In this document: one piece after another, positions 1 to 30,859 of the stretch
Layout: each line of letters starts with the position of its first letter
How positions within the stretch are numbered: position 1 is the stretch's first letter
NCBI GenBank assembly: GCA_001001205.1
Contig: LCKE01000015.1
Coordinates: forward strand, 1-43,298
Length of the DNA: 43,298 nucleotides
Direction of reading: 5' to 3'
Origin: Parcubacteria group bacterium GW2011_GWF2_45_11
Lineage (GTDB): Bacteria > Patescibacteriota > Patescibacteriia > UBA1558 > UBA10009
Made by a program: the position numbers and the translations under genes
The notes under the pieces: model-generated
Databases searched by the model: none
The model's input: only the letters and a program-made list of their open reading frames with translations
What the model was told of the DNA's origin: nothing

Positions 1-165
1 TTTTTAAAACGACCTTTTATGTTATTATTATCTCACAAAGTTGTATTTTAATGAATTGACTAACTTTCGGCTGTTTTTAAGCCAAAGGCGTAAGTCCTAT
101 ATATCAAAATTAATAGACTAAGCCAATAAATCTTAGGGTTTAACGGCCAAAGAAAGCCAACGTCA

Positions 166-4876: not shown

Positions 4877-5098
4877 AATTTGTCCCTGAGGCTCCTCCGC
4901 CTAATTGGCGGTTTCGCTCGGGGTATTTTTATTTTTGTTTTTGCTTAATTATTAATTATCTAAATTCTTAAGATCTGACAATATAAAAACATAGGCCAAA
5001 ATTCCTATGTTATGTTCTTATGATAGCACACTTAATCTAAAAAGTCAAGAACTTTTTAAAATAAAGCCCGATTCACCGGCCGCGATTTTAAAAATATT

Positions 5099-8532: not shown

Positions 8533-8804
8533 AGCTAAAGTTTAGGACGGCCGCGGCAAAAACCTGACGACCGACCAACCGGCAAAAGCAAAACGAAAAA
8601 ATTGAAATTAAATCGTTCGCCGCGCAGTACAGGCATCCTGGCTGAGGCAACGGAATTTTCAAAAAACAGCACTCTTTATTGACTGACGGCCCTACCGTCT
8701 AATGGTTTGCCGCCTCATCGGCGACCGGCTGGAGAGGCGGACCTGCCGGCAGGGATACCAAATTTTGTTCATCCGCGCCAAAAAACTTCAAATTAAAAAA
8801 TCTC

Positions 8805-8879
8805 GCCGCCTTCGTCTAGTGGTTAGGACACCAGGTTTTCATCCTGGTAACAGGGGTCCGATTCCCCTAGGCGGTACCA
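8805..8879 (+). tRNA. tRNA-Glu(UUC)
   Basis: Cloverleaf by eye: acceptor GCCGCCT/AGGCGGT, anticodon stem CCAGG/CCTGG, loop TTTTCAT, T-loop TCCGATT, CCA encoded. Confidence 0.93.
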
Positions 8880-26298: not shown

Positions 26299-26333
26299 GA
26301 ACAGATAATGGCTGGCTATATTTTACGACGCCG

Positions 26334-26342
26334 TGATATAAT
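26334..26342 (+). promoter_or_regulatory. extended -10 promoter (TGaTATAAT) for the recombinase gene
   Basis: TGATATAAT at 26334-26342. It lies inside the 5' extension of the long ORF, which argues for the internal start at 26425. Confidence 0.4.
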
Positions 26343-26424
26343 AGAAAGTGAAACTAGGAAACATATCCGTCCGACTCGTTGTCGTGGCAAGCGGGCATGT
26401 TACGTATTGCATCCTACATTCTTT

Positions 26425-27255
26425 ATGCAAAAATACTTTAATTACCTCAAGAGCCGGGGCTTAAGCCAGCGAACCGTCCGCAACTACCGTTTTTATTTAG
26501 CAAGGTTTTTTAACTTTGCCAAAATCGCCAATGGTTCGGACATTACGGTCGCAAAAATCACCGCTTTTACCCGTTATTTAAGCCAAATACAAATCAATCA
26601 TCGGCCTTTAAGCCAGTTGACCAGAAATTACCATCTGATCGCCTTAAGGTCATTGTTAAAATACCTGGAGCAGCAAAAACTTCCCAAACTGCCGGCGGCC
26701 AAAACCGTGGTCTTGGCCAAAACCGAGCGCCGTCCGCAGACCTTGATTAACGCTGACCTCAACAAACTCCTGGCCGCTCCCCTAAAATTCAATAACCCCA
26801 AAATCGTCAAAAGCCGCGACAAGGCGATTCTGGAACTGCTTTTTGCCACCGGCTTAAAAGTCAGTCGCCTGAGCGGGCTGACAAGGTCATGCCTTAACCG
26901 AGTTACGGGACACCTTAAAGCCAGTTCAAAAAAATGCCAGCTGTCGCATCAGGCGCTTTACTGGCTCAAGGAATATCTTAATTTACGCACAGACAACCAT
27001 CCGGCTTTATTCTTAAGCCACGACCGGGCCGCCCGGAGACGGAGCAAAATCAGCAACCTCAGCCCCCGCTCGGTCCAAAGGCTGGTGGAAAAGTACGCCA
27101 AATCCGCCGGGCTTAATAAAAAAATCACCCCCGAGACCTTAAGACGCGCCTATGCCAACCGGCTGCTCGGCCTAGGGCTGAACGTTCAAGAACTGCAAAA
27201 AAAGCTGGGACACCGTTCAATCAACGCCACCAATCTGATGTATAAGAAAAAATAA
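26425..27255 (+). CDS. tyrosine site-specific recombinase, XerC/XerD-like
   Basis: SAM-like N-domain (YLKSRGLSQRTVRNYRFYLARFF). Catalytic C-domain with ...LRRAYANRLL..., LGHRSINATNLMY (R..H-x-x-R..Y pattern). The ORF is open from 26308 but the first 39 aa look non-native. Confidence 0.85.
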   Translation: MQKYFNYLKSRGLSQRTVRNYRFYLARFFNFAKIANGSDITVAKITAFTRYLSQIQINHRPLSQLTRNYHLIALRSLLKYLEQQKLPKLPAAKTVVLAKTERRPQTLINADLNKLLAAPLKFNNPKIVKSRDKAILELLFATGLKVSRLSGLTRSCLNRVTGHLKASSKKCQLSHQALYWLKEYLNLRTDNHPALFLSHDRAARRRSKISNLSPRSVQRLVEKYAKSAGLNKKITPETLRRAYANRLLGLGLNVQELQKKLGHRSINATNLMYKKK

Positions 27256-28010: not shown

Positions 28011-28492
28011 CCCCGAGCTTACGCTCGGGGTATTAGCCGAACGCAAGCTTCGCTTGTCCAGAGTCCTCTTGCCCCTGCTGCTCAATATATCGCCTAATAA
28101 CCTTCAGACCAGACGCTGTCGGTGCCCCAATAGGCCTCTTTGACGAACGGGAATTTTTGCTTCAATGATTTGGCGGTATTGCTCTTTATTATCCTGACCG
28201 CATTACCCACTGACATCGTGGGAGGAATGGAGACCAAAAGGTGAATATGGTCAAAATCGTGATTAACCGTCTTACAGCTAATTAGTGGGTAATGCTTGTG
28301 AATTTCATCAAGCTTGGTCTCCAAATAGGCAAAAATTCCCTCGTTAAATATCCTCTTTCGATATTTAGTCACTAAAACAAGGTGGTAATCGCAATAGTAG
28401 ACACAATGGCTAAGTCTTGTCACTTCCATACCTTACAGTATGAGGCAAGAGGACTCTGGAATCAACTCCATCCCACGGCCTTACGGCCGGGG
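28011..28492 (-). mobile_element. IS200/IS605-family element (tnpA only), decayed
   Basis: Subterminal hairpins with an identical GTAA loop on the element strand: CCCCGAGC-GTAA-GCTCGGGG (28011-28030) and CCCCGGCC-GTAA-GGCCGTGGG (28472-28492). A 17-bp inverted repeat GGCAAGAGGACTCTGGA (28057-28073 / 28444-28460) brackets tnpA. Confidence 0.75.
28094..28429 (-). pseudogene. tnpA: IS200/IS605 Y1 (HUH) transposase TnpA, C-terminally disrupted
   Basis: HUH motif DHIHLLVSIPP is present. The frame stops after ...VWSEGY. The expected C-terminus VIRRYIEQQGQ..., with the catalytic Tyr, is readable only in another frame (about 28040-28100). About 12 codons (FVSTVG...) are missing. Confidence 0.8.
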
Positions 28493-29399: not shown

Positions 29400-29554
29400 G
29401 GTTTTAATAGGTTAATAAATTAATTGGGTCATAGATTGAGGAAAATCTGGGAAAGGAATCAAGCCCCCAAAATCCAATACAAATTAGTCGCCGAGTCCGC
29501 CGAAAAGGCGGATATACTCCGCGAGGTGAACTAAAACTCTTTAACTTTTCATTC

Positions 29555-29648
29555 TGGAGCCGACGGTCGGATTCGAACCGACGACCTACAGTTTATGCCG
29601 CCCTTGGCGGCACCCCGCCGAAGGCGGTGGCAAAACTGTTGCTCTACC
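29555..29648 (-). pseudogene. partial tRNA-Thr(UGU) copy A with a 35-nt insert in the anticodon loop
   Basis: The 3' half at 29555-29595 is 41/41 identical to the intact gene. The 35-nt insert is at 29596-29630. Then 18 nt, GGTAGAGCAACAGTTTTG (29631-29648). The acceptor 5' strand and D-stem 5' strand are absent. Confidence 0.85.
29596..29630 (-). repeat. 35-nt two-hairpin GC-rich mini-insert (copy in Thr-UGU fragment)
   Basis: Plus strand TGCCGCC-CTT-GGCGGCA CCCCGCC-GAA-GGCGGTGG. It is 32/35 identical to 30349-30383, and all 3 differences fall in the hairpin loops. Confidence 0.85.
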
Positions 29649-29659
29649 TGCCGAACGAC

Positions 29660-29716
29660 TGGAGCCGACGGTCGGATTCGAACCGACGACCTACAGTTTA
29701 TGCCGCCCTTGGCGGC
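29660..29716 (-). pseudogene. partial tRNA-Thr(UGU) copy B: 3' half plus one hairpin
   Basis: The 3' half at 29660-29700 is 41/41 identical. It is joined at the same anticodon-loop position to TGCCGCCCTTGGCGGC (29701-29716). It shares the trailer GTCGTTCGG with the intact gene. Confidence 0.85.
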
Positions 29717-29725
29717 CCGAACGAC

Positions 29726-29801
29726 TGGAGCCGACGGTCGGATTCGAACCGACGACCTACAGTTTACAAAACTGTTGCTCTACCAACTGAGCTACGTCGG
29801 C
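29726..29801 (-). tRNA. tRNA-Thr(UGU)
   Basis: GCCGACG TA GCTC AGTTGGTA GAGC A ACAGT TTTGTAA ACTGT AGGTC GTCGG TTCGAAT CCGAC CGTCGGC T CCA. Confidence 0.93.
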
Positions 29802-29822
29802 GACTGGCGACTGGCGGGCAGG

Positions 29823-29859
29823 CAAAACTGTTGCTCGGCAAATCAGCTTAACATATCGC
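29823..29859 (-). pseudogene. degenerate 5' half of tRNA-Thr(UGU)
   Basis: GAGCAACAGTTTTG is exact (29823-29836) and is preceded by a diverged acceptor/D-arm-like stretch. It ends at the same anticodon-loop position and abuts CCTGCCCGCCAGTCGCCAGTC and then the intact gene. Confidence 0.55.
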
Positions 29860-29979
29860 TGATGGCTCGCCATAAAATTTTTGCGGACATCAACAACTTG
29901 TTAACCGCTACCCTAAAGCAAAAACTTTATTCGCTTCGGGGTATAAAATATTTGCTCAGCCTAGTTCGCAAATACTTTT

Positions 29980-30065
29980 TGGTGGGCCGGGTAGGATTCG
30001 AACCTACGAAGGCGAAAGCCAACAGATTTACAGTCTGTCCCGTTTGACCGCTTCGGTACCGACCC
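29980..30065 (-). tRNA. tRNA-Tyr(GUA)
   Basis: 86 nt, class II with a long variable arm. Acceptor GGGTCGG/CCGGCCC, anticodon stem ACAGA/TCTGT, loop CTGTAAA, T-loop TTCGAAT, CCA encoded. Confidence 0.92.
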
Positions 30066-30075
30066 ATATAGACTT

Positions 30076-30321
30076 TTAATTTTCAATTAGCTTTTTAAAT
30101 GCTTCACCGCCTTTATATGATTTTATTCGCAACTCTCTTTTATATGCTTCTTGTTTTGTTAAATACTTTTCCTGATATATAAATTTCCAAGGTACGCCTG
30201 GTTTTGTTGATCTGACTAAACCAGCATTGTGTCTTTTCAATCTTTGCTCCAAATTACCTGTGTGACCAATATAATACTTCTTAATTGAAACACTATATAA
30301 AATGTAAACAATATACTTCAT
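30076..30321 (-). CDS. GIY-YIG nuclease-domain protein (small, catalytic domain only)
   Basis: 81 aa. Motifs YIVYILYS...KYYIGHT (GIY-YIG), RLKRHN, and the conserved Arg/Glu region (KRELRIK). Confidence 0.85.
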   Translation of the reverse strand: MKYIVYILYSVSIKKYYIGHTGNLEQRLKRHNAGLVRSTKPGVPWKFIYQEKYLTKQEAYKRELRIKSYKGGEAFKKLIEN

Positions 30322-30341
30322 TATCCCTTTTCTTAAGCTTT

Positions 30342-30418
30342 AGATTTATGCCGCCTGTGGCGGCACCCCGCCAAAGGCGGTGGCAGTCTGTCCCGTTTGA
30401 CCGCTTCGGTACCGACCC
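30342..30418 (-). pseudogene. duplicate of tRNA-Tyr positions 1-41 interrupted by the 35-nt insert
   Basis: GGGTCGG...ACAGACTG (30418-30384), then the 35-nt insert (30383-30349), then TAAATCT (30348-30342). The tRNA-derived parts are identical to the intact gene 277 bp downstream on the same strand. Confidence 0.85.
30349..30383 (-). repeat. 35-nt two-hairpin GC-rich mini-insert (copy in Tyr fragment)
   Basis: Plus strand TGCCGCC-TGT-GGCGGCA CCCCGCC-AAA-GGCGGTGG. It sits between TTTA and CA, exactly as in the Thr-UGU copy. Confidence 0.85.
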
Positions 30419-30626: not shown

Positions 30627-30724
30627 TGGAGCCGATGTGCGGACTTGAACCGCGGACCTACTCCTTACTCCGCCTACACCCCTTGTTTTGCTTGGGGTTT
30701 CGGCGGACAGGCATGGAGTTGCTC
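30627..30724 (-). pseudogene. partial tRNA-Thr(GGU) copy with a 44-nt insert in the anticodon loop
   Basis: The 3' part at 30627-30668 is 41/42 identical to the intact gene. A 44-nt hairpin insert TCCGCC...GGCGGA-CAGGC lies at 30669-30712. Then ATGGAGTTGCTC (30713-30724). The acceptor 5' strand and D-loop are absent. Confidence 0.8.
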
Positions 30725-30741
30725 CCCGCCTGCCGATCGCC

Positions 30742-30817
30742 TGGAGCCGATGTGCGGACTTGAACCGCAGACCTACTCCTTACCATGGAGTTGCTCTACC
30801 AACTGAGCTACATCGGC
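30742..30817 (-). tRNA. tRNA-Thr(GGU)
   Basis: GCCGATG TA GCTC AGTTGGTA GAGC A ACTCC ATGGTAA GGAGT AGGTC TGCGG TTCAAGT CCGCA CATCGGC T CCA. Confidence 0.93.
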
Positions 30818-30838
30818 GCCCGGAGACTGGCGGGCAGG

Positions 30839-30859
30839 TACTAACTGAGCTACAACGGC
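30839..30859 (-). pseudogene. orphan tRNA 5' fragment (acceptor strand plus D-stem/loop)
   Basis: GCCGTTGTAGCTCAGTTAGTA is 19/21 identical to the Thr-GGU 5' end. It stops after D-loop ...GTA and abuts CCTGCCCGCCAGTCTCCGGGC and then the intact gene. Confidence 0.65.

Follow-up and report, generated by a model that had tools for sequence, protein, structure and literature searches.

Displaced halves of tRNA genes in many CPR/Patescibacteria carry a covarying 35-nt double hairpin, termed E35 here, at a fixed bond. Comparison of the sequences leads us to propose, at a probability of roughly 45%, that E35 is the conserved junction module of homing-type selfish cassettes that replace tRNA genes in these bacteria. 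The anatomy of the loci, the conservation and covariation of E35, its linkage to a nuclease gene and the horizontal spread of the cassettes are all visible in the loci compared. The starting point was a stretch of 43,298 nt from a Parcubacteria genome (contig LCKE01000015.1), referred to as the window, in which inserts bearing an intact replacement tRNA interrupt older tRNA genes precisely at a loop, one within another. Five or more assemblies of the species, made independently, show the same structure, which excludes an assembly artefact.

A pattern search with TGCCGCCnnnGGCGGCACCCCGCCnnnGGCGGTGG gave exactly two matches in the window, on the plus strand at 29596-29630 and 30349-30383, and none in shuffled window sequence. 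The two copies are 753 nt apart and identical at 32/35 positions, with all three differences confined to the two 3-nt hairpin loops, which bears out what the first-pass annotation had read from the letters. In the tRNA sense (minus strand), the Tyr copy (30349..30383) matches the pattern as CCACCGCC-TTT-GGCGGGGTGCCGCC-ACA-GGCGGCA (59.7 bits with covariance model R1) and the Thr-UGU copy (29596..29630) as CCACCGCC-TTC-GGCGGGGTGCCGCC-AAG-GGCGGCA (56.9 bits). Over the 43 kb, the covariance model recovered these two full copies and, also as first annotated, a half copy with the right hairpin alone (GCCGCCAAGGGCGGCA, 29701..29716, minus strand), and no others. The half element abuts TAAAC of a ghost 3' half and is part of a 66-nt unit missing from other assemblies of the species. 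Hairpins at 4897-4915, 8707-8746 and 29489-29505, annotated as relatives, do exist and are of the CCGCC/GGCGG type, but their model scores lie at or below noise. The plus-strand flanks are cagTTTA^..^CAaaac and agaTTTA^..^CAgtct, confirming an insertion between TTTA and CA, and no direct repeat or target duplication was seen flanking either window copy. Read on the minus strand, the flanks are TTTTG^TAAAC and GACTG^TAAATC, with TG^TAAA as the common bond. Together with the anticodon stem of its ghost, the Thr-UGU copy folds into a three-way junction (-19.2 kcal/mol, z = -5.1). A long-palindrome fold is energetically possible for the Tyr copy, and was rejected as covariation pairs the partners of two short hairpins instead.

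All tRNAs at the locus, and all parts of them listed below, lie on the minus strand, and the functional genes are uninterrupted according to ARAGORN and Rfam. The inserts had been placed in tRNA anticodon loops; the fixed anticodon-loop bond stands, but the hosts are truncated copies (ghosts) adjoining the intact tRNA-Tyr and tRNA-Thr(UGU), and the working genes are not interrupted. The Tyr ghost consists of a 5' half (30384..30418; positions 1-35, ending at the anticodon G, 100% identical to the intact tRNA over 1-35 by blastn), E35, and TAAATCT from the rest of the anticodon arm (30342..30348), where the ghost ends in the window allele; in allele L002 it extends to position ~48. The gene of an 81-aa GIY-YIG nuclease lies between this ghost and the working tRNA-Tyr(GUA) at 29980..30065 (ARAGORN; Rfam 59.9 bits), so that the Tyr insert carries a nuclease gene as well as a tRNA.

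The Thr-UGU gene is split exactly as positions 22-35, an insert of left flank x, intact tRNA, trailer and right hairpin, and positions 36-76. Positions 22-35, lying 5' of the 35|36 split in this copy, are at 29823..29836, x (CCTGCCCGCCAGTCGCCAGTC, a motif present in other genomes) at 29802..29822, the intact tRNA-Thr(UGU) at 29726..29801 (ARAGORN; Rfam) and the ghost 3' half, positions 36-76, at 29660..29700. A further ghost segment (positions 18-35, 29631..29648) precedes the Thr-UGU copy of E35, which is followed by a second copy of positions 36-76 at 29555..29595; all ghost segments were assigned by blastn. The Thr-GGU gene is likewise split exactly, into 1-21, x with intact tRNA and y, 22-34, a hairpin, and 35-76. 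Its outer ghost begins with positions 1-21 (30839..30859; mutated, A5->T and G18->A), and its D loop holds x (CCTGCCCGCCAGTCTCCGGGC, 30818..30838), the intact tRNA-Thr(GGU) (30742..30817; ARAGORN; Rfam) and y (GGCGATCGGCAGGCGGG, 30725..30741), identical copies of which occur at other tRNA-Thr genes in L034 and L041. Positions 22-34 follow at 30712..30724, a 43-nt hairpin insert (E43) at ATG^GTAA at 30669..30711, and positions 35-76 at 30627..30668 (97.6% identity), again by blastn. The annotation had counted E43 among the related hairpins and read TTAC beside it as a transposon target word; the hairpin is present, but its sequence is unlike E35 and TTAC is merely the equivalent loop position. 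Other genomes have 38-39-nt CCCCGCA..TGCGGGG hairpins at the bond of E43. The inner Thr-GGU cassette folds with z = -3.06, and the leaders and trailers of inner Thr tRNAs pair and lengthen the acceptor stem, for instance in L014. Swapped hexamers were also noticed in the flanks, with CCTGCC-CGCC in x and GGCAGG-CGGG in y.

The nuclease gene (30076..30321, minus strand; Pfam PF01541, 6.7e-15) encodes a stand-alone protein whose GIY-YIG domain spans residues 2-68 of 81 and which belongs to a known homing family. No DNA-binding module was found by Pfam or by profile-versus-structure comparison, leaving a bare catalytic domain. The nearest solved structures are UPF0213 proteins, followed by SLX1, and the profile matches I-TevI too. 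To sample its surroundings, 80 loci were fetched from 450 metagenome relatives of the nuclease and picked blind to E35. An intact tRNA lay at most 120 nt away in 70/80 (Tyr 43, Ser 25, Thr 4, Pro 2, Gln 1); the Thr genes, in all four cases, are merely upstream of the nuclease gene in the cluster. Beyond the nuclease gene, a cognate ghost was present in 43/60 and 10/15 loci. An E35 model match directly followed the Tyr ghost in 22 of 31 cases and 8 further ghosts had variants of the same architecture, giving a two-hairpin module at the same bond in 30/31 Tyr ghosts of this nuclease-chosen sample. The protein consistently linked to the arrangement of ghost and E35 is the GIY-YIG nuclease and no transposase. 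Cassettes measure 0.1-0.4 kb and contain the nuclease gene as their only ORF or no ORF at all, the Thr cassettes being without it.

Confinement of the motif to the window loci had been regarded as a sign of local duplication; instead, E35 was found at equivalent bonds in >100 loci from many lineages, with the exact motif at 41 genome loci across CPR/Patescibacteria. Its sequence is near-constant among Patescibacteria, Omnitrophica and UBP2 genomes, and a GTDB scan gave 1-4 exact copies per genome, with 2 in the 43 kb of the window. Wherever the contig permits a check, E35 in a tRNA context occurs only in partial copies adjoining intact cognate genes. Further sites include the anticodon loops of Thr-CGU and Ser-UGA, the D and T loops of ghosts, and ~8 intergenic, non-tRNA positions in three phylum-level groups. 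E35 thus occupies independent sites and must have been inserted more than once. The TTTA word first annotated precedes the insert at both Tyr and Thr-UGU on the plus strand; over 48 flank classes, no single word recurred and only a G^(A/T)AA bias was seen, and most copies share their site by descent. The orientation is always tRNA-sense in anticodon loops and is inverted in several D-loop copies (L030, L119, L120). E35 stands on both sides of the cassette in L024, L033, L036, L061, L109 and L111, and in a small number of ghosts the anticodon loop is uninterrupted (L130, L083, L062). Several downstream ghosts have a GC hairpin in place of the T arm, eliminating the T-loop motif, with the same length in one measured case. 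At gathering thresholds, Rfam reported tRNAs only for the window, and likewise for 11 loci having non-tRNA copies of E35. A phage vector was considered and rejected, the motif being absent from IMG/VR.

When 94 distinct elements were compared, 13/14 pairs proved canonical in 94% of them or more, 8 stem pairs show compensatory double changes, an A.G mismatch is kept in 84/94, and loop length varies from 3 to 43 nt. By this covariation, the stems of E35 appear to be under structural selection. The loops are apparently saturated with change and the stems unchanged, which argues against recent copy-and-paste.

Sequence relationships also indicate that the cassettes have spread horizontally between lineages. 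The Thr-GGU cassette of x, tRNA and y is 109/114 identical in L034, whose resident gene has a different acceptor stem, and in L041 the same x/y flanks surround two different Thr tRNAs. In L044, two ghosts and an intact gene stand in series with three different acceptor stems. Allele L002, from the species of the window, has a left junction of the Falkowbacteria type (L033) and is a recombinant. Tandem arrays with units of ~101-105 nt (stub, E35, 3' half and spacer) occur in L036, L009 and the window. In L055, a tRNA-Ser(GGA) ghost stub is joined to a window-type Tyr cassette exactly via E35, a join that may be an assembly chimera at the 35-nt repeat.

In its anatomy, a cassette sits within a resident tRNA gene at one fixed loop bond. 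In Tyr, Thr-UGU/CGU and Ser-UGA genes this bond is YG^WAAA of the anticodon loop; in some Ser and Thr genes it lies in the D loop. The cassette supplies a whole tRNA or the displaced half, which rebuilds a working tRNA, and at Tyr and Ser genes an ~80-aa stand-alone UPF0213/SLX1-type nuclease comes with it. What was displaced from the old gene stays behind as a ghost half, capped by E35 at the exact break, and the intact copy would serve the cell; host tRNA function is preserved via a rebuilt gene rather than by splicing. We infer the cutting agent, the cut position and the repair route as follows. The nuclease would cleave the loop of an uninterrupted tRNA gene, repair would copy the cassette-bearing allele with the ghost halves as homology arms, and E35 would then interrupt the cut site of the ghost. 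Recombination distal to E35 would yield a dead tRNA, so the cassette would be hard to lose and E35 would be maintained through selection on the cassette. Successive rounds would leave arrays of ghosts and cassettes nested in older genes.

Several observations count against this proposal. The intact inner tRNA retains the presumed cut site (CTGTAAATC), leaving self-immunity unexplained; the nuclease is a bare catalytic domain; and since the Thr cassettes have no nuclease gene, it would need to act in trans. No close nuclease homologue was found within the locus near the ~8 intergenic E35 sites, where one locus (L028) gave a weak GIY-YIG match (E = 7e-05). Interruption of a site or of homology needs no set sequence, yet the E35 stems are near-invariant across phyla. 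The few ghosts with uninterrupted anticodon loops also speak against it, and many ghosts are 100% identical to the adjoining intact gene, which also fits simple local duplication and later insertion.

A more tentative reading, possible in our estimate, is an undescribed kind of structure-directed mobile DNA, in which stem-closed modules enter single-stranded loops in tRNA genes and in one another and the SLX1-like GIY-YIG nuclease probably opens the loops. The modules may comprise the double hairpin by itself, a tRNA gene between GC-rich flanks that pair, and a nuclease gene combined with a tRNA. If so, a cassette that destroys an essential resident tRNA gene and supplies its replacement would act as a natural gene drive with addiction built in, and the displaced tRNA halves would form a readable fossil series.

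It is unlikely that E35 is instead a folded recombination site, attC- or Xer-like, through which circular cassettes integrate by E35 x E35 or E35 x loop exchange, with a recombinase encoded elsewhere and the GIY-YIG gene as cargo. The conserved structure with loops free in length and sequence, the cassettes flanked on both sides, the tandem arrays of ~101-105-nt units and the L055 join exactly at E35 would all suit such a site, as would a XerC-like integrase gene at 26308-27255. That gene, however, is of the normal housekeeping type and lies outside the cassettes, no integrase gene was found in or adjoining the cassettes of the examined loci, and the L055 join is the one that may be chimeric. 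Moreover, recombination would find no E35 partner in a naive tRNA gene, and first entry would go unexplained.

The first-pass annotation favoured an IS200/IS605 or REP/RAYT mechanism, and we consider it quite improbable that E35 is a non-autonomous single-strand transposon (an IS200/IS605 PATE or REP-like element) moved by a Y1/HUH transposase encoded elsewhere, inserting 3' of a T-rich word (TTTA, plus strand) in hairpin loops and surviving only where harmless, in ghosts. Two hairpins, the fixed bond TG^TAAA and the absence of target duplication agree with it, and so do the independent sites in other loops and intergenic DNA with their G^(A/T)AA bias, the near-same sequence in three groups and the nesting of one element within another. 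The decayed IS200-type tnpA reported 1.1 kb away was confirmed as a Y1_Tnp fragment, the only Y1_Tnp ORF in the window (28094-28429; truncated, disrupted before the RYIEQQ motif), but its end hairpins, CCCGGCC-GTAA-GGCCGTGGG and CCCCGAGC-GTAA-GCTCGGGG, are unrelated to E35 (6 bits with model R1). A scan of the 44 motif loci turned up no Y1_Tnp ORF, exact copies number at most 4 per genome, and the 48 flank classes lack a single target word. Copies from the same genome vary in loops, not stems, and are therefore old copies under selection rather than near-identical dispersed repeats. The shared bond of 30/31 Tyr ghosts in the motif-blind sample fits inheritance with the cassette, not repeated hits. 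REP/RAYT systems comprise high-copy extragenic palindromes and a RAYT gene between REPs. A GTAG or CGTC head is the published head-motif criterion for them (PMC3733652). Both heads are absent from E35, which begins CCACC (TGCCG on the opposite strand); it is low-copy, with no Y1 ORF nearby in the motif loci.

There is little probability that E35 acts in RNA, as a removable intron-like insert or as a structural insulator or stabiliser in a transcript (the nuclease mRNA, in its 5' leader, or the intact tRNA, in its 3' trailer); an insulator would guard the working tRNA against mispairing with ghost halves or keep the latter out of tRNA processing. The constant tRNA-sense orientation in anticodon loops and the covarying stems can be cited for it, as can the loss of the T-loop motif where a GC hairpin replaces the T arm, the paired leader and trailer extending the acceptor stem (L014) and the stable fold of the window Thr-GGU cassette. 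However, with half of the tRNA missing from the interrupted copies, splicing could yield no tRNA, and ARAGORN in intron mode detects no complete interrupted tRNA. Rfam matches nothing beyond tRNAs, several D-loop copies are inverted, hairpins placed in loops leave the mispairing strands unsequestered, and, anticodon-loop bases aside, there are no conserved unpaired nucleotides for a ribozyme core. Two specific RNA candidates were rejected: a ribozyme, as the conserved unpaired bases of the three-way junction belong to the anticodon loop only and do not, by eye, fit a hammerhead core; and a tRNA intron, on the truncated copies, the negative ARAGORN intron mode, the tRNA-only Rfam result and a length, 35 nt, far below that of group I. 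The size of the insert and the G at its 5' junction rule out a group I intron. Chance or purely local duplication can be dismissed: the window has only two full copies, 753 nt apart, but they lie in ghosts of different tRNAs, and >100 loci, drawn from many lineages, have the same element at the same bonds.

A full-text literature search found no description of an arrangement of E35-capped tRNA ghosts and nuclease cassettes. If the homing-cassette proposal is correct, selfish cassettes of ~0.1-0.4 kb would be serially overwriting essential tRNA genes across much of the bacterial tree. Made up of a hairpin module, a piece of tRNA that restores the target and a nuclease gene, these would be among the smallest self-sufficient mobile units proposed. 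The proposal would assign a role to the UPF0213/COG2827 stand-alone GIY-YIG proteins, which are widespread and uncharacterised, account for the tRNA fragments and odd hairpins that confuse CPR tRNA annotation, and provide a natural record of gene replacement events and a compact structure-directed nuclease/site pair that is directly testable in vitro. Whether the mechanism is right or wrong, a covarying 35-nt module at a fixed bond of displaced tRNA halves demands explanation.

Among known systems, the free-standing GIY-YIG homing endonuclease gene segB lies within the tRNA gene cluster of phage T4 (PMC2330249). The likeness to SegB-type genes is that of a small GIY-YIG gene among or within tRNA genes, sporadic and horizontally spread, with the expected route being a break repaired by copying the donor allele and flanking markers. 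Unlike SegB, the predicted CPR nuclease is an ~80-aa catalytic domain alone, of the UPF0213/SLX1 type, and its gene sits inside a duplicated target beside a rebuilt tRNA, with the displaced half capped by a double hairpin.

Integrative elements reportedly target tRNA genes, with attP/attB in the anticodon or T loop and a partial tRNA that restores the gene. The CPR cassettes share with them the insertion in a loop, restoration of the gene from carried sequence and a partial tRNA at the far junction. Partial tRNA genes can arise from integration (PMC9897764), and downstream CPR ghosts, with an anticodon-stem stub and a 3' half, resemble attR sites. Unlike integrative elements, the cassettes have no integrase in or beside them, are 0.1-0.4 kb rather than kilobases, have the 5' half displaced as often as the 3' half, and have a conserved hairpin module in the would-be crossover region. 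PATEs and REP/RAYT systems share hairpin-forming ends, no target duplication and insertion beside a short sequence, and their single-strand chemistry on stem-loops would be attractive for a loop-directed element. E35 differs in that no cognate Y1 was found in the window or the motif loci, the hairpins of the neighbouring IS200 are unrelated, copy number is very low, and there is no fixed word and no GTAG/CGTC head.

Integron attC sites are folded, with structure conserved over loop sequence and a central part very variable in length, and they bound cassettes arranged in arrays. E35 likewise has a conserved structure with a variable-length centre and bounds arrayed cassettes; unlike attC, which has R''/L''-L'/R' boxes with a G^TT crossover, it comes with no IntI gene at the examined loci and no R/L box consensus, its host site is a tRNA loop and its stems are near-invariant in sequence. 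Archaea are said to have tRNA introns, split and permuted tRNA genes and, in Thermoproteales, intron transposition. Like archaeal tRNA introns, the CPR inserts are short, structured, placed at several loop positions and related between different tRNAs, and the GC-rich paired flanks of the cassettes resemble split-tRNA leaders; unlike them, the interrupted copies are incomplete with an intact gene alongside, the hosts are bacterial and a bulge-helix-bulge motif is not established. Nostoc-type cyanobacterial hairpin repeats, reportedly tens of nt long with compensatory changes, nesting and no target duplication, are similar in small size, shared hairpin fold and these same three traits. In contrast to these high-copy, dispersed repeats, E35 has few copies, and they are bound up with ghost tRNA loops and a nuclease cassette.

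In the window, the 35-nt two-hairpin module E35 matches its exact pattern twice, at 29596-29630 and 30349-30383, and shuffled sequences gave no match. As the first-pass annotation had stated, the two copies agree at 32 of 35 positions, with the three mismatches confined to the two 3-nt loops (chance about 0.003 for three differences in six loop positions under random placement); on the plus strand the flanks are TTTA^ and ^CA (^, insertion bond), with no direct repeat. A covariance model (R1), made after the initial pattern search and run over the 43 kb, recovers both copies and the truncated copy proposed at 29701-29716, and nothing further. The annotation placed the inserts in the anticodon loops of two tRNAs; the loop position stands, but the hosts are ghosts, that is, partial, displaced copies beside an intact gene. 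The genes for tRNA-Thr-UGU (29801..29726), tRNA-Tyr (30065..29980) and tRNA-Thr-GGU (30817..30742), on the minus strand like all tRNAs in this stretch, are uninterrupted and functional.

Read on the minus strand, the Tyr locus comprises ghost 1-35, E35, TAAATCT, a spacer, an 81-aa GIY-YIG ORF and intact tRNA-Tyr. The Thr-UGU locus runs through ghost 22-35, left flank x (CCTGCCCGCCAGTCGCCAGTC), intact tRNA, GTCGTTCGG, the right hairpin of E35, ghost 36-76, GTCGTTCGGCA, ghost 18-35, E35 and ghost 36-76, and the Thr-GGU locus through ghost 1-21, x (CCTGCCCGCCAGTCTCCGGGC), intact tRNA, right flank y (GGCGATCGGCAGGCGGG), ghost 22-34, a 43-nt hairpin and ghost 35-76. Because, around the tRNA-carrying inserts, one ghost piece starts exactly where the other stops (21|22 at Thr-GGU, 35|36 at Thr-UGU), these small units, or cassettes, were inserted into an older copy of the same gene; the same exact fit rules out decayed tandem copies as the origin of the Thr ghosts. 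The outer Thr-GGU ghost carries the damaging changes A5->T and G18->A. E35 breaks Thr-UGU at TTTTG^TAAAC (35|36) and Tyr at GACTG^TAAATC (34|35); the common denominator is one sequence, TG^TAAA, not one tRNA position. The TTAC at the Thr-GGU insert, previously taken for the IS608 target word, is the same loop bond and no IS608 signature.

The x/y flanks (window 30725-30838 and 29802-29822; also L018, L019, L034 and L041 among the fetched loci) differ from simple inverted repeats. Their first hexamers pair (CCTGCC/GGCAGG, or CCCGCC/GGCGGG in L018). A second pairing that overlaps the first can also form, giving two mutually exclusive 6-bp helices that close the cassette. Upstream of tRNA-Glu (8805-8879), a GC-rich hairpin cluster at 8707-8758 ends in the palindrome CCTGCCGGCAGG, whose halves resemble x (CCTGCC..) and y (..GGCAGG) and which also adjoins an intergenic E35 in L037 (350-380). 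A XerC/XerD-like tyrosine recombinase gene (26308-27255, plus strand) lies immediately upstream of a tRNA-Arg/Arg/His cluster; no connection between it and the cassettes was found.

Scanning GTDB representative genomes with a 30-nt core, loops free, gave 44 stretches, three of which are GC-rich chance matches. The remainder are mostly MAGs labelled Patescibacteria or its classes, with two Omnitrophica and one UBP2 by label; about ten TPA MAGs carry the database label "uncultured Gammaproteobacteria". Exact copies number 1-4 per genome, and the exact motif was not found in IMG/VR. About 30 copies occupy the Tyr bond (..GACTG^..^TAAATC), about eight that of Thr-UGU or Thr-CGU (..TTTTG^..^TAAAC or TTCG^TAAAG) and one that of Ser-UGA (CTTG^AAAAC), while a single copy, inverted, occupies a Tyr-ghost D loop (L030). 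Wherever a tRNA-context locus could be checked on its contig, the interrupted copy is partial and an intact cognate tRNA is adjacent. In tRNA contexts, E35 sits at one fixed loop bond of a displaced tRNA half. The annotation had reasoned that a motif confined to its own loci would favour local duplication over mobility; the outcome is split: the window holds no more copies, but those in other genomes share the loop context. Insertion 3' of one fixed word, also proposed there, reduces to a bias across 48 distinct flank classes, with G before E35 in 29 and A/T-A-A after it in about 15 (20 counting GAA and AAG).

About eight copies are intergenic, at non-tRNA sites, including an orthologous 5'-UTR site in two related genomes. 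In the UBP2-like L042 and L048, E35 holds the same 5'-UTR position though the flanks have diverged, and in the Omnitrophica L012 and L013 a small GYAC-GAA-GTGC hairpin holds it within its loop (G^AA); the stems are unchanged in these four loci outside CPR. At the Tyr bond, L056 and L057 hold a 20-nt one-hairpin form (CCACCCCGCCAGAGGCGGCA) resembling a deletion between E35's repeated CCGCC blocks.

Searching with R1 yielded 122 non-overlapping elements in 100 loci, 94 of them distinct. In an alignment fitted to R1, and so biased toward pairing, all modelled pairs but one (13/14) are canonical in at least 94% of the distinct sequences; at the remaining one an A.G mismatch is conserved (84/94). 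Compensatory double changes occur at eight pairs, among them C8-G12 (CG 80, TA 7, AT 3), G20-C34 (GC 60, CG 23, TA 1), T19-A35 (TA 83, CG 5) and C25-G29 (CG 78, TA 4, AT 3), and they link the partners of the two short hairpins despite the model-fitted alignment. E35 is a conserved, covarying two-hairpin module. An alternative long palindrome also folds well; covariation does not connect its partners. Loops are mostly 3 nt and reach 43 nt. As their differences are confined to loops, the window copies appear to be old, with stems under constraint, and not fresh transposition products.

Where the tRNA concerned is Tyr or Ser, the displaced half and the intact gene are separated by a small GIY-YIG nuclease gene. 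The 44 motif loci contain 28 ORFs matching the window protein, a bare GIY-YIG domain whose nearest solved relatives are, in order, two UPF0213 proteins, the structure-specific endonuclease SLX1 and I-TevI. The usual Tyr arrangement consists of ghost 1-35 (often with a GC hairpin in the D loop), E35, positions 36-41..49 and the nuclease ORF, followed by intact tRNA-Tyr, about 13 nt, an anticodon-stem stub, E35 and ghost 36-end; several downstream ghosts have a CCCGCC..GGCGGG hairpin in place of the T arm. Against search bias, loci were also sampled via the nuclease protein instead of E35 (450 metagenome relatives, 80 loci fetched). An intact tRNA lies within 120 nt in 70 of the 80 and just downstream in 60 (median about 13 nt). 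The isotypes are Tyr (43), Ser (25), Thr (4), Pro (2) and Gln (1), and all four Thr genes simply precede the nuclease gene within a cluster. Bacterial tRNA-Tyr and tRNA-Ser belong to the class with a long variable arm, and their predominance indicates that such tRNAs are the chief targets. Across the nuclease gene from the intact tRNA, 43/60 and 10/15 loci have a ghost of the same tRNA. The sample includes 31 Tyr ghost 5' halves that stop at the anticodon G: a model match directly follows 22 of them, eight more show a variant two-hairpin architecture (loops of ~40 nt, nested hairpins, or one hairpin lost) and one has a deletion. In Ser cassettes the ghost/cassette junction falls in the D loop and carries a related module, in either orientation; L082 has a module in both the anticodon loop and the T loop. 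A few ghosts have an uninterrupted anticodon loop.

The T arm is replaced, not interrupted, by a CCCGCC..GGCGGGA hairpin in L021, L024, L031 (14 nt for 14 nt), L034, L050 and L130, so that the GTTCGAATC motif is lost yet a hairpin is retained at that position. In many loci (L033, L024, L014, L019, L025, L045, L030) the nuclease ORF, lacking its own stop, runs ~37 nt into the downstream tRNA-Tyr, to the TAA of the anticodon loop (C-terminus ..VDTEAVKRDRL, then stop). In L025, L026 and L017 an open frame (..PPPxAGCRxRRHKS..) crosses the upstream ghost and E35 and continues into the start of the nuclease; stops shut both readthrough frames in the window (30076-30321).

Contigs of NCBI, JGI and ENA assemblies encode an identical neighbouring TPI protein, and five same-species loci (L001, L003, L005, L006, L008) share the window's ghost structure, which is therefore no assembly artefact. 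A 66-nt unit (right hairpin, ghost 36-76 and trailer) occurs only in the window among the same-species assemblies compared; 50-nt direct repeats flank it, so recombination or collapse during assembly may account for its absence from the others. Extra units are present in L009, and in L004 a deletion of 76 nt starts in E35 and runs into the nuclease gene. The left junction of L002 is identical to that of a Falkowbacteria MAG (L033), with a related 36-nt two-hairpin element nested in the first hairpin of E35 and the ghost extending to position ~48; in L002 it is joined, with a frameshift, to a window-type nuclease gene. L002 is a recombinant of cassettes from different lineages.

Cassettes travel between lineages. 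The window Thr-GGU cassette (x, tRNA and y) shares 109 of 114 positions with its counterpart in a marine MAG (L034); there the cassette occupies the D loop of a resident gene whose acceptor stem differs (GTCCACC/GGTGGGC), and in L041 the same x/y flanks surround two different Thr tRNAs. In L014 two ghosts in a row and an intact gene each have a different acceptor stem, and a perfect 10-bp inverted repeat brackets the inner tRNA; L044 reads ghost1-E35-ghost2-E35-intact with three different Thr-UGU sequences. Such arrangements record one replacement after another. Many of the remaining ghosts, however, match the adjacent intact half at 100% identity, which is compatible with population-level spread, gene conversion or plain duplication. 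L055 (1332-1500) joins an intact tRNA-Ser(GGA), a 19-nt spacer and a stub, via E35, to window-type TAAATCT, nuclease gene and tRNA-Tyr; its nuclease gene is 100% identical to the window's, a second paralogue lies upstream, and the join either arose by genuine E35 x E35 recombination or is a chimera made at the 35-nt repeat during assembly.

We give a probability of roughly 45% to the following mechanism as a whole. The nuclease would open the loop of an uninterrupted tRNA gene, and repair would copy the cassette-bearing allele with the ghost halves as homology arms. In the ghost, E35 would mark and block the break site and, together with D-loop and T-arm hairpins, chop its homology to the working gene into short pieces; a crossover past the first piece would then yield a dead tRNA, stabilising the cassette. 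Repeated rounds would produce ghost arrays and nesting. Against this mechanism, the presumed cut site is retained in the intact gene, the nuclease lacks a DNA-binding domain, Thr cassettes carry no nuclease gene, and intergenic E35 sites have no close nuclease homologue nearby. Site interruption alone would also not require so conserved a sequence, which suggests that some factor binds E35 and leaves room for two further readings. That E35 is an attC-like recombination site seems improbable; that it is a single-strand transposon is slightly less probable still. No ORF in the 44 motif loci matches the window's Y1 transposase fragment, the partner expected under the Y1 (IS200/IS605 or REP/RAYT) reading of the first-pass annotation.

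The decayed IS200-type tnpA cited there is real (Y1 fragment 28094-28429; the segment preceding the RYIEQQ motif is lost, with a frameshift), but its flanking hairpins are of a different family. The decayed element spans 28011-28492 (minus strand), between tRNA-Trp and tRNA-His, with tnpA disrupted ahead of the catalytic motif and end hairpins CCCGGCC-GTAA-GGCCGTGGG (28472-28492) and CCCCGAGC-GTAA-GCTCGGGG (28011-28030); it is also found in other assemblies of the species.

No description of this tRNA-cassette arrangement was found in the full-text literature. What appears to be new is the combination: a ~0.35-kb cassette uniting a hairpin module and a bare nuclease domain with a piece of tRNA that restores the target, tRNA-only cassettes whose paired GC-rich flanks are conserved, and nesting. 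Its pieces have known counterparts: GIY-YIG homing genes located among tRNA genes, such as T4 SegB (PMC2330249), partial tRNA genes as left by integrating elements (PMC9897764) and structured recombination sites. There is a real, if lesser, chance that the insertion chemistry belongs to a kind not yet described; we file the E35 cassettes as a variant of homing or integrative elements.
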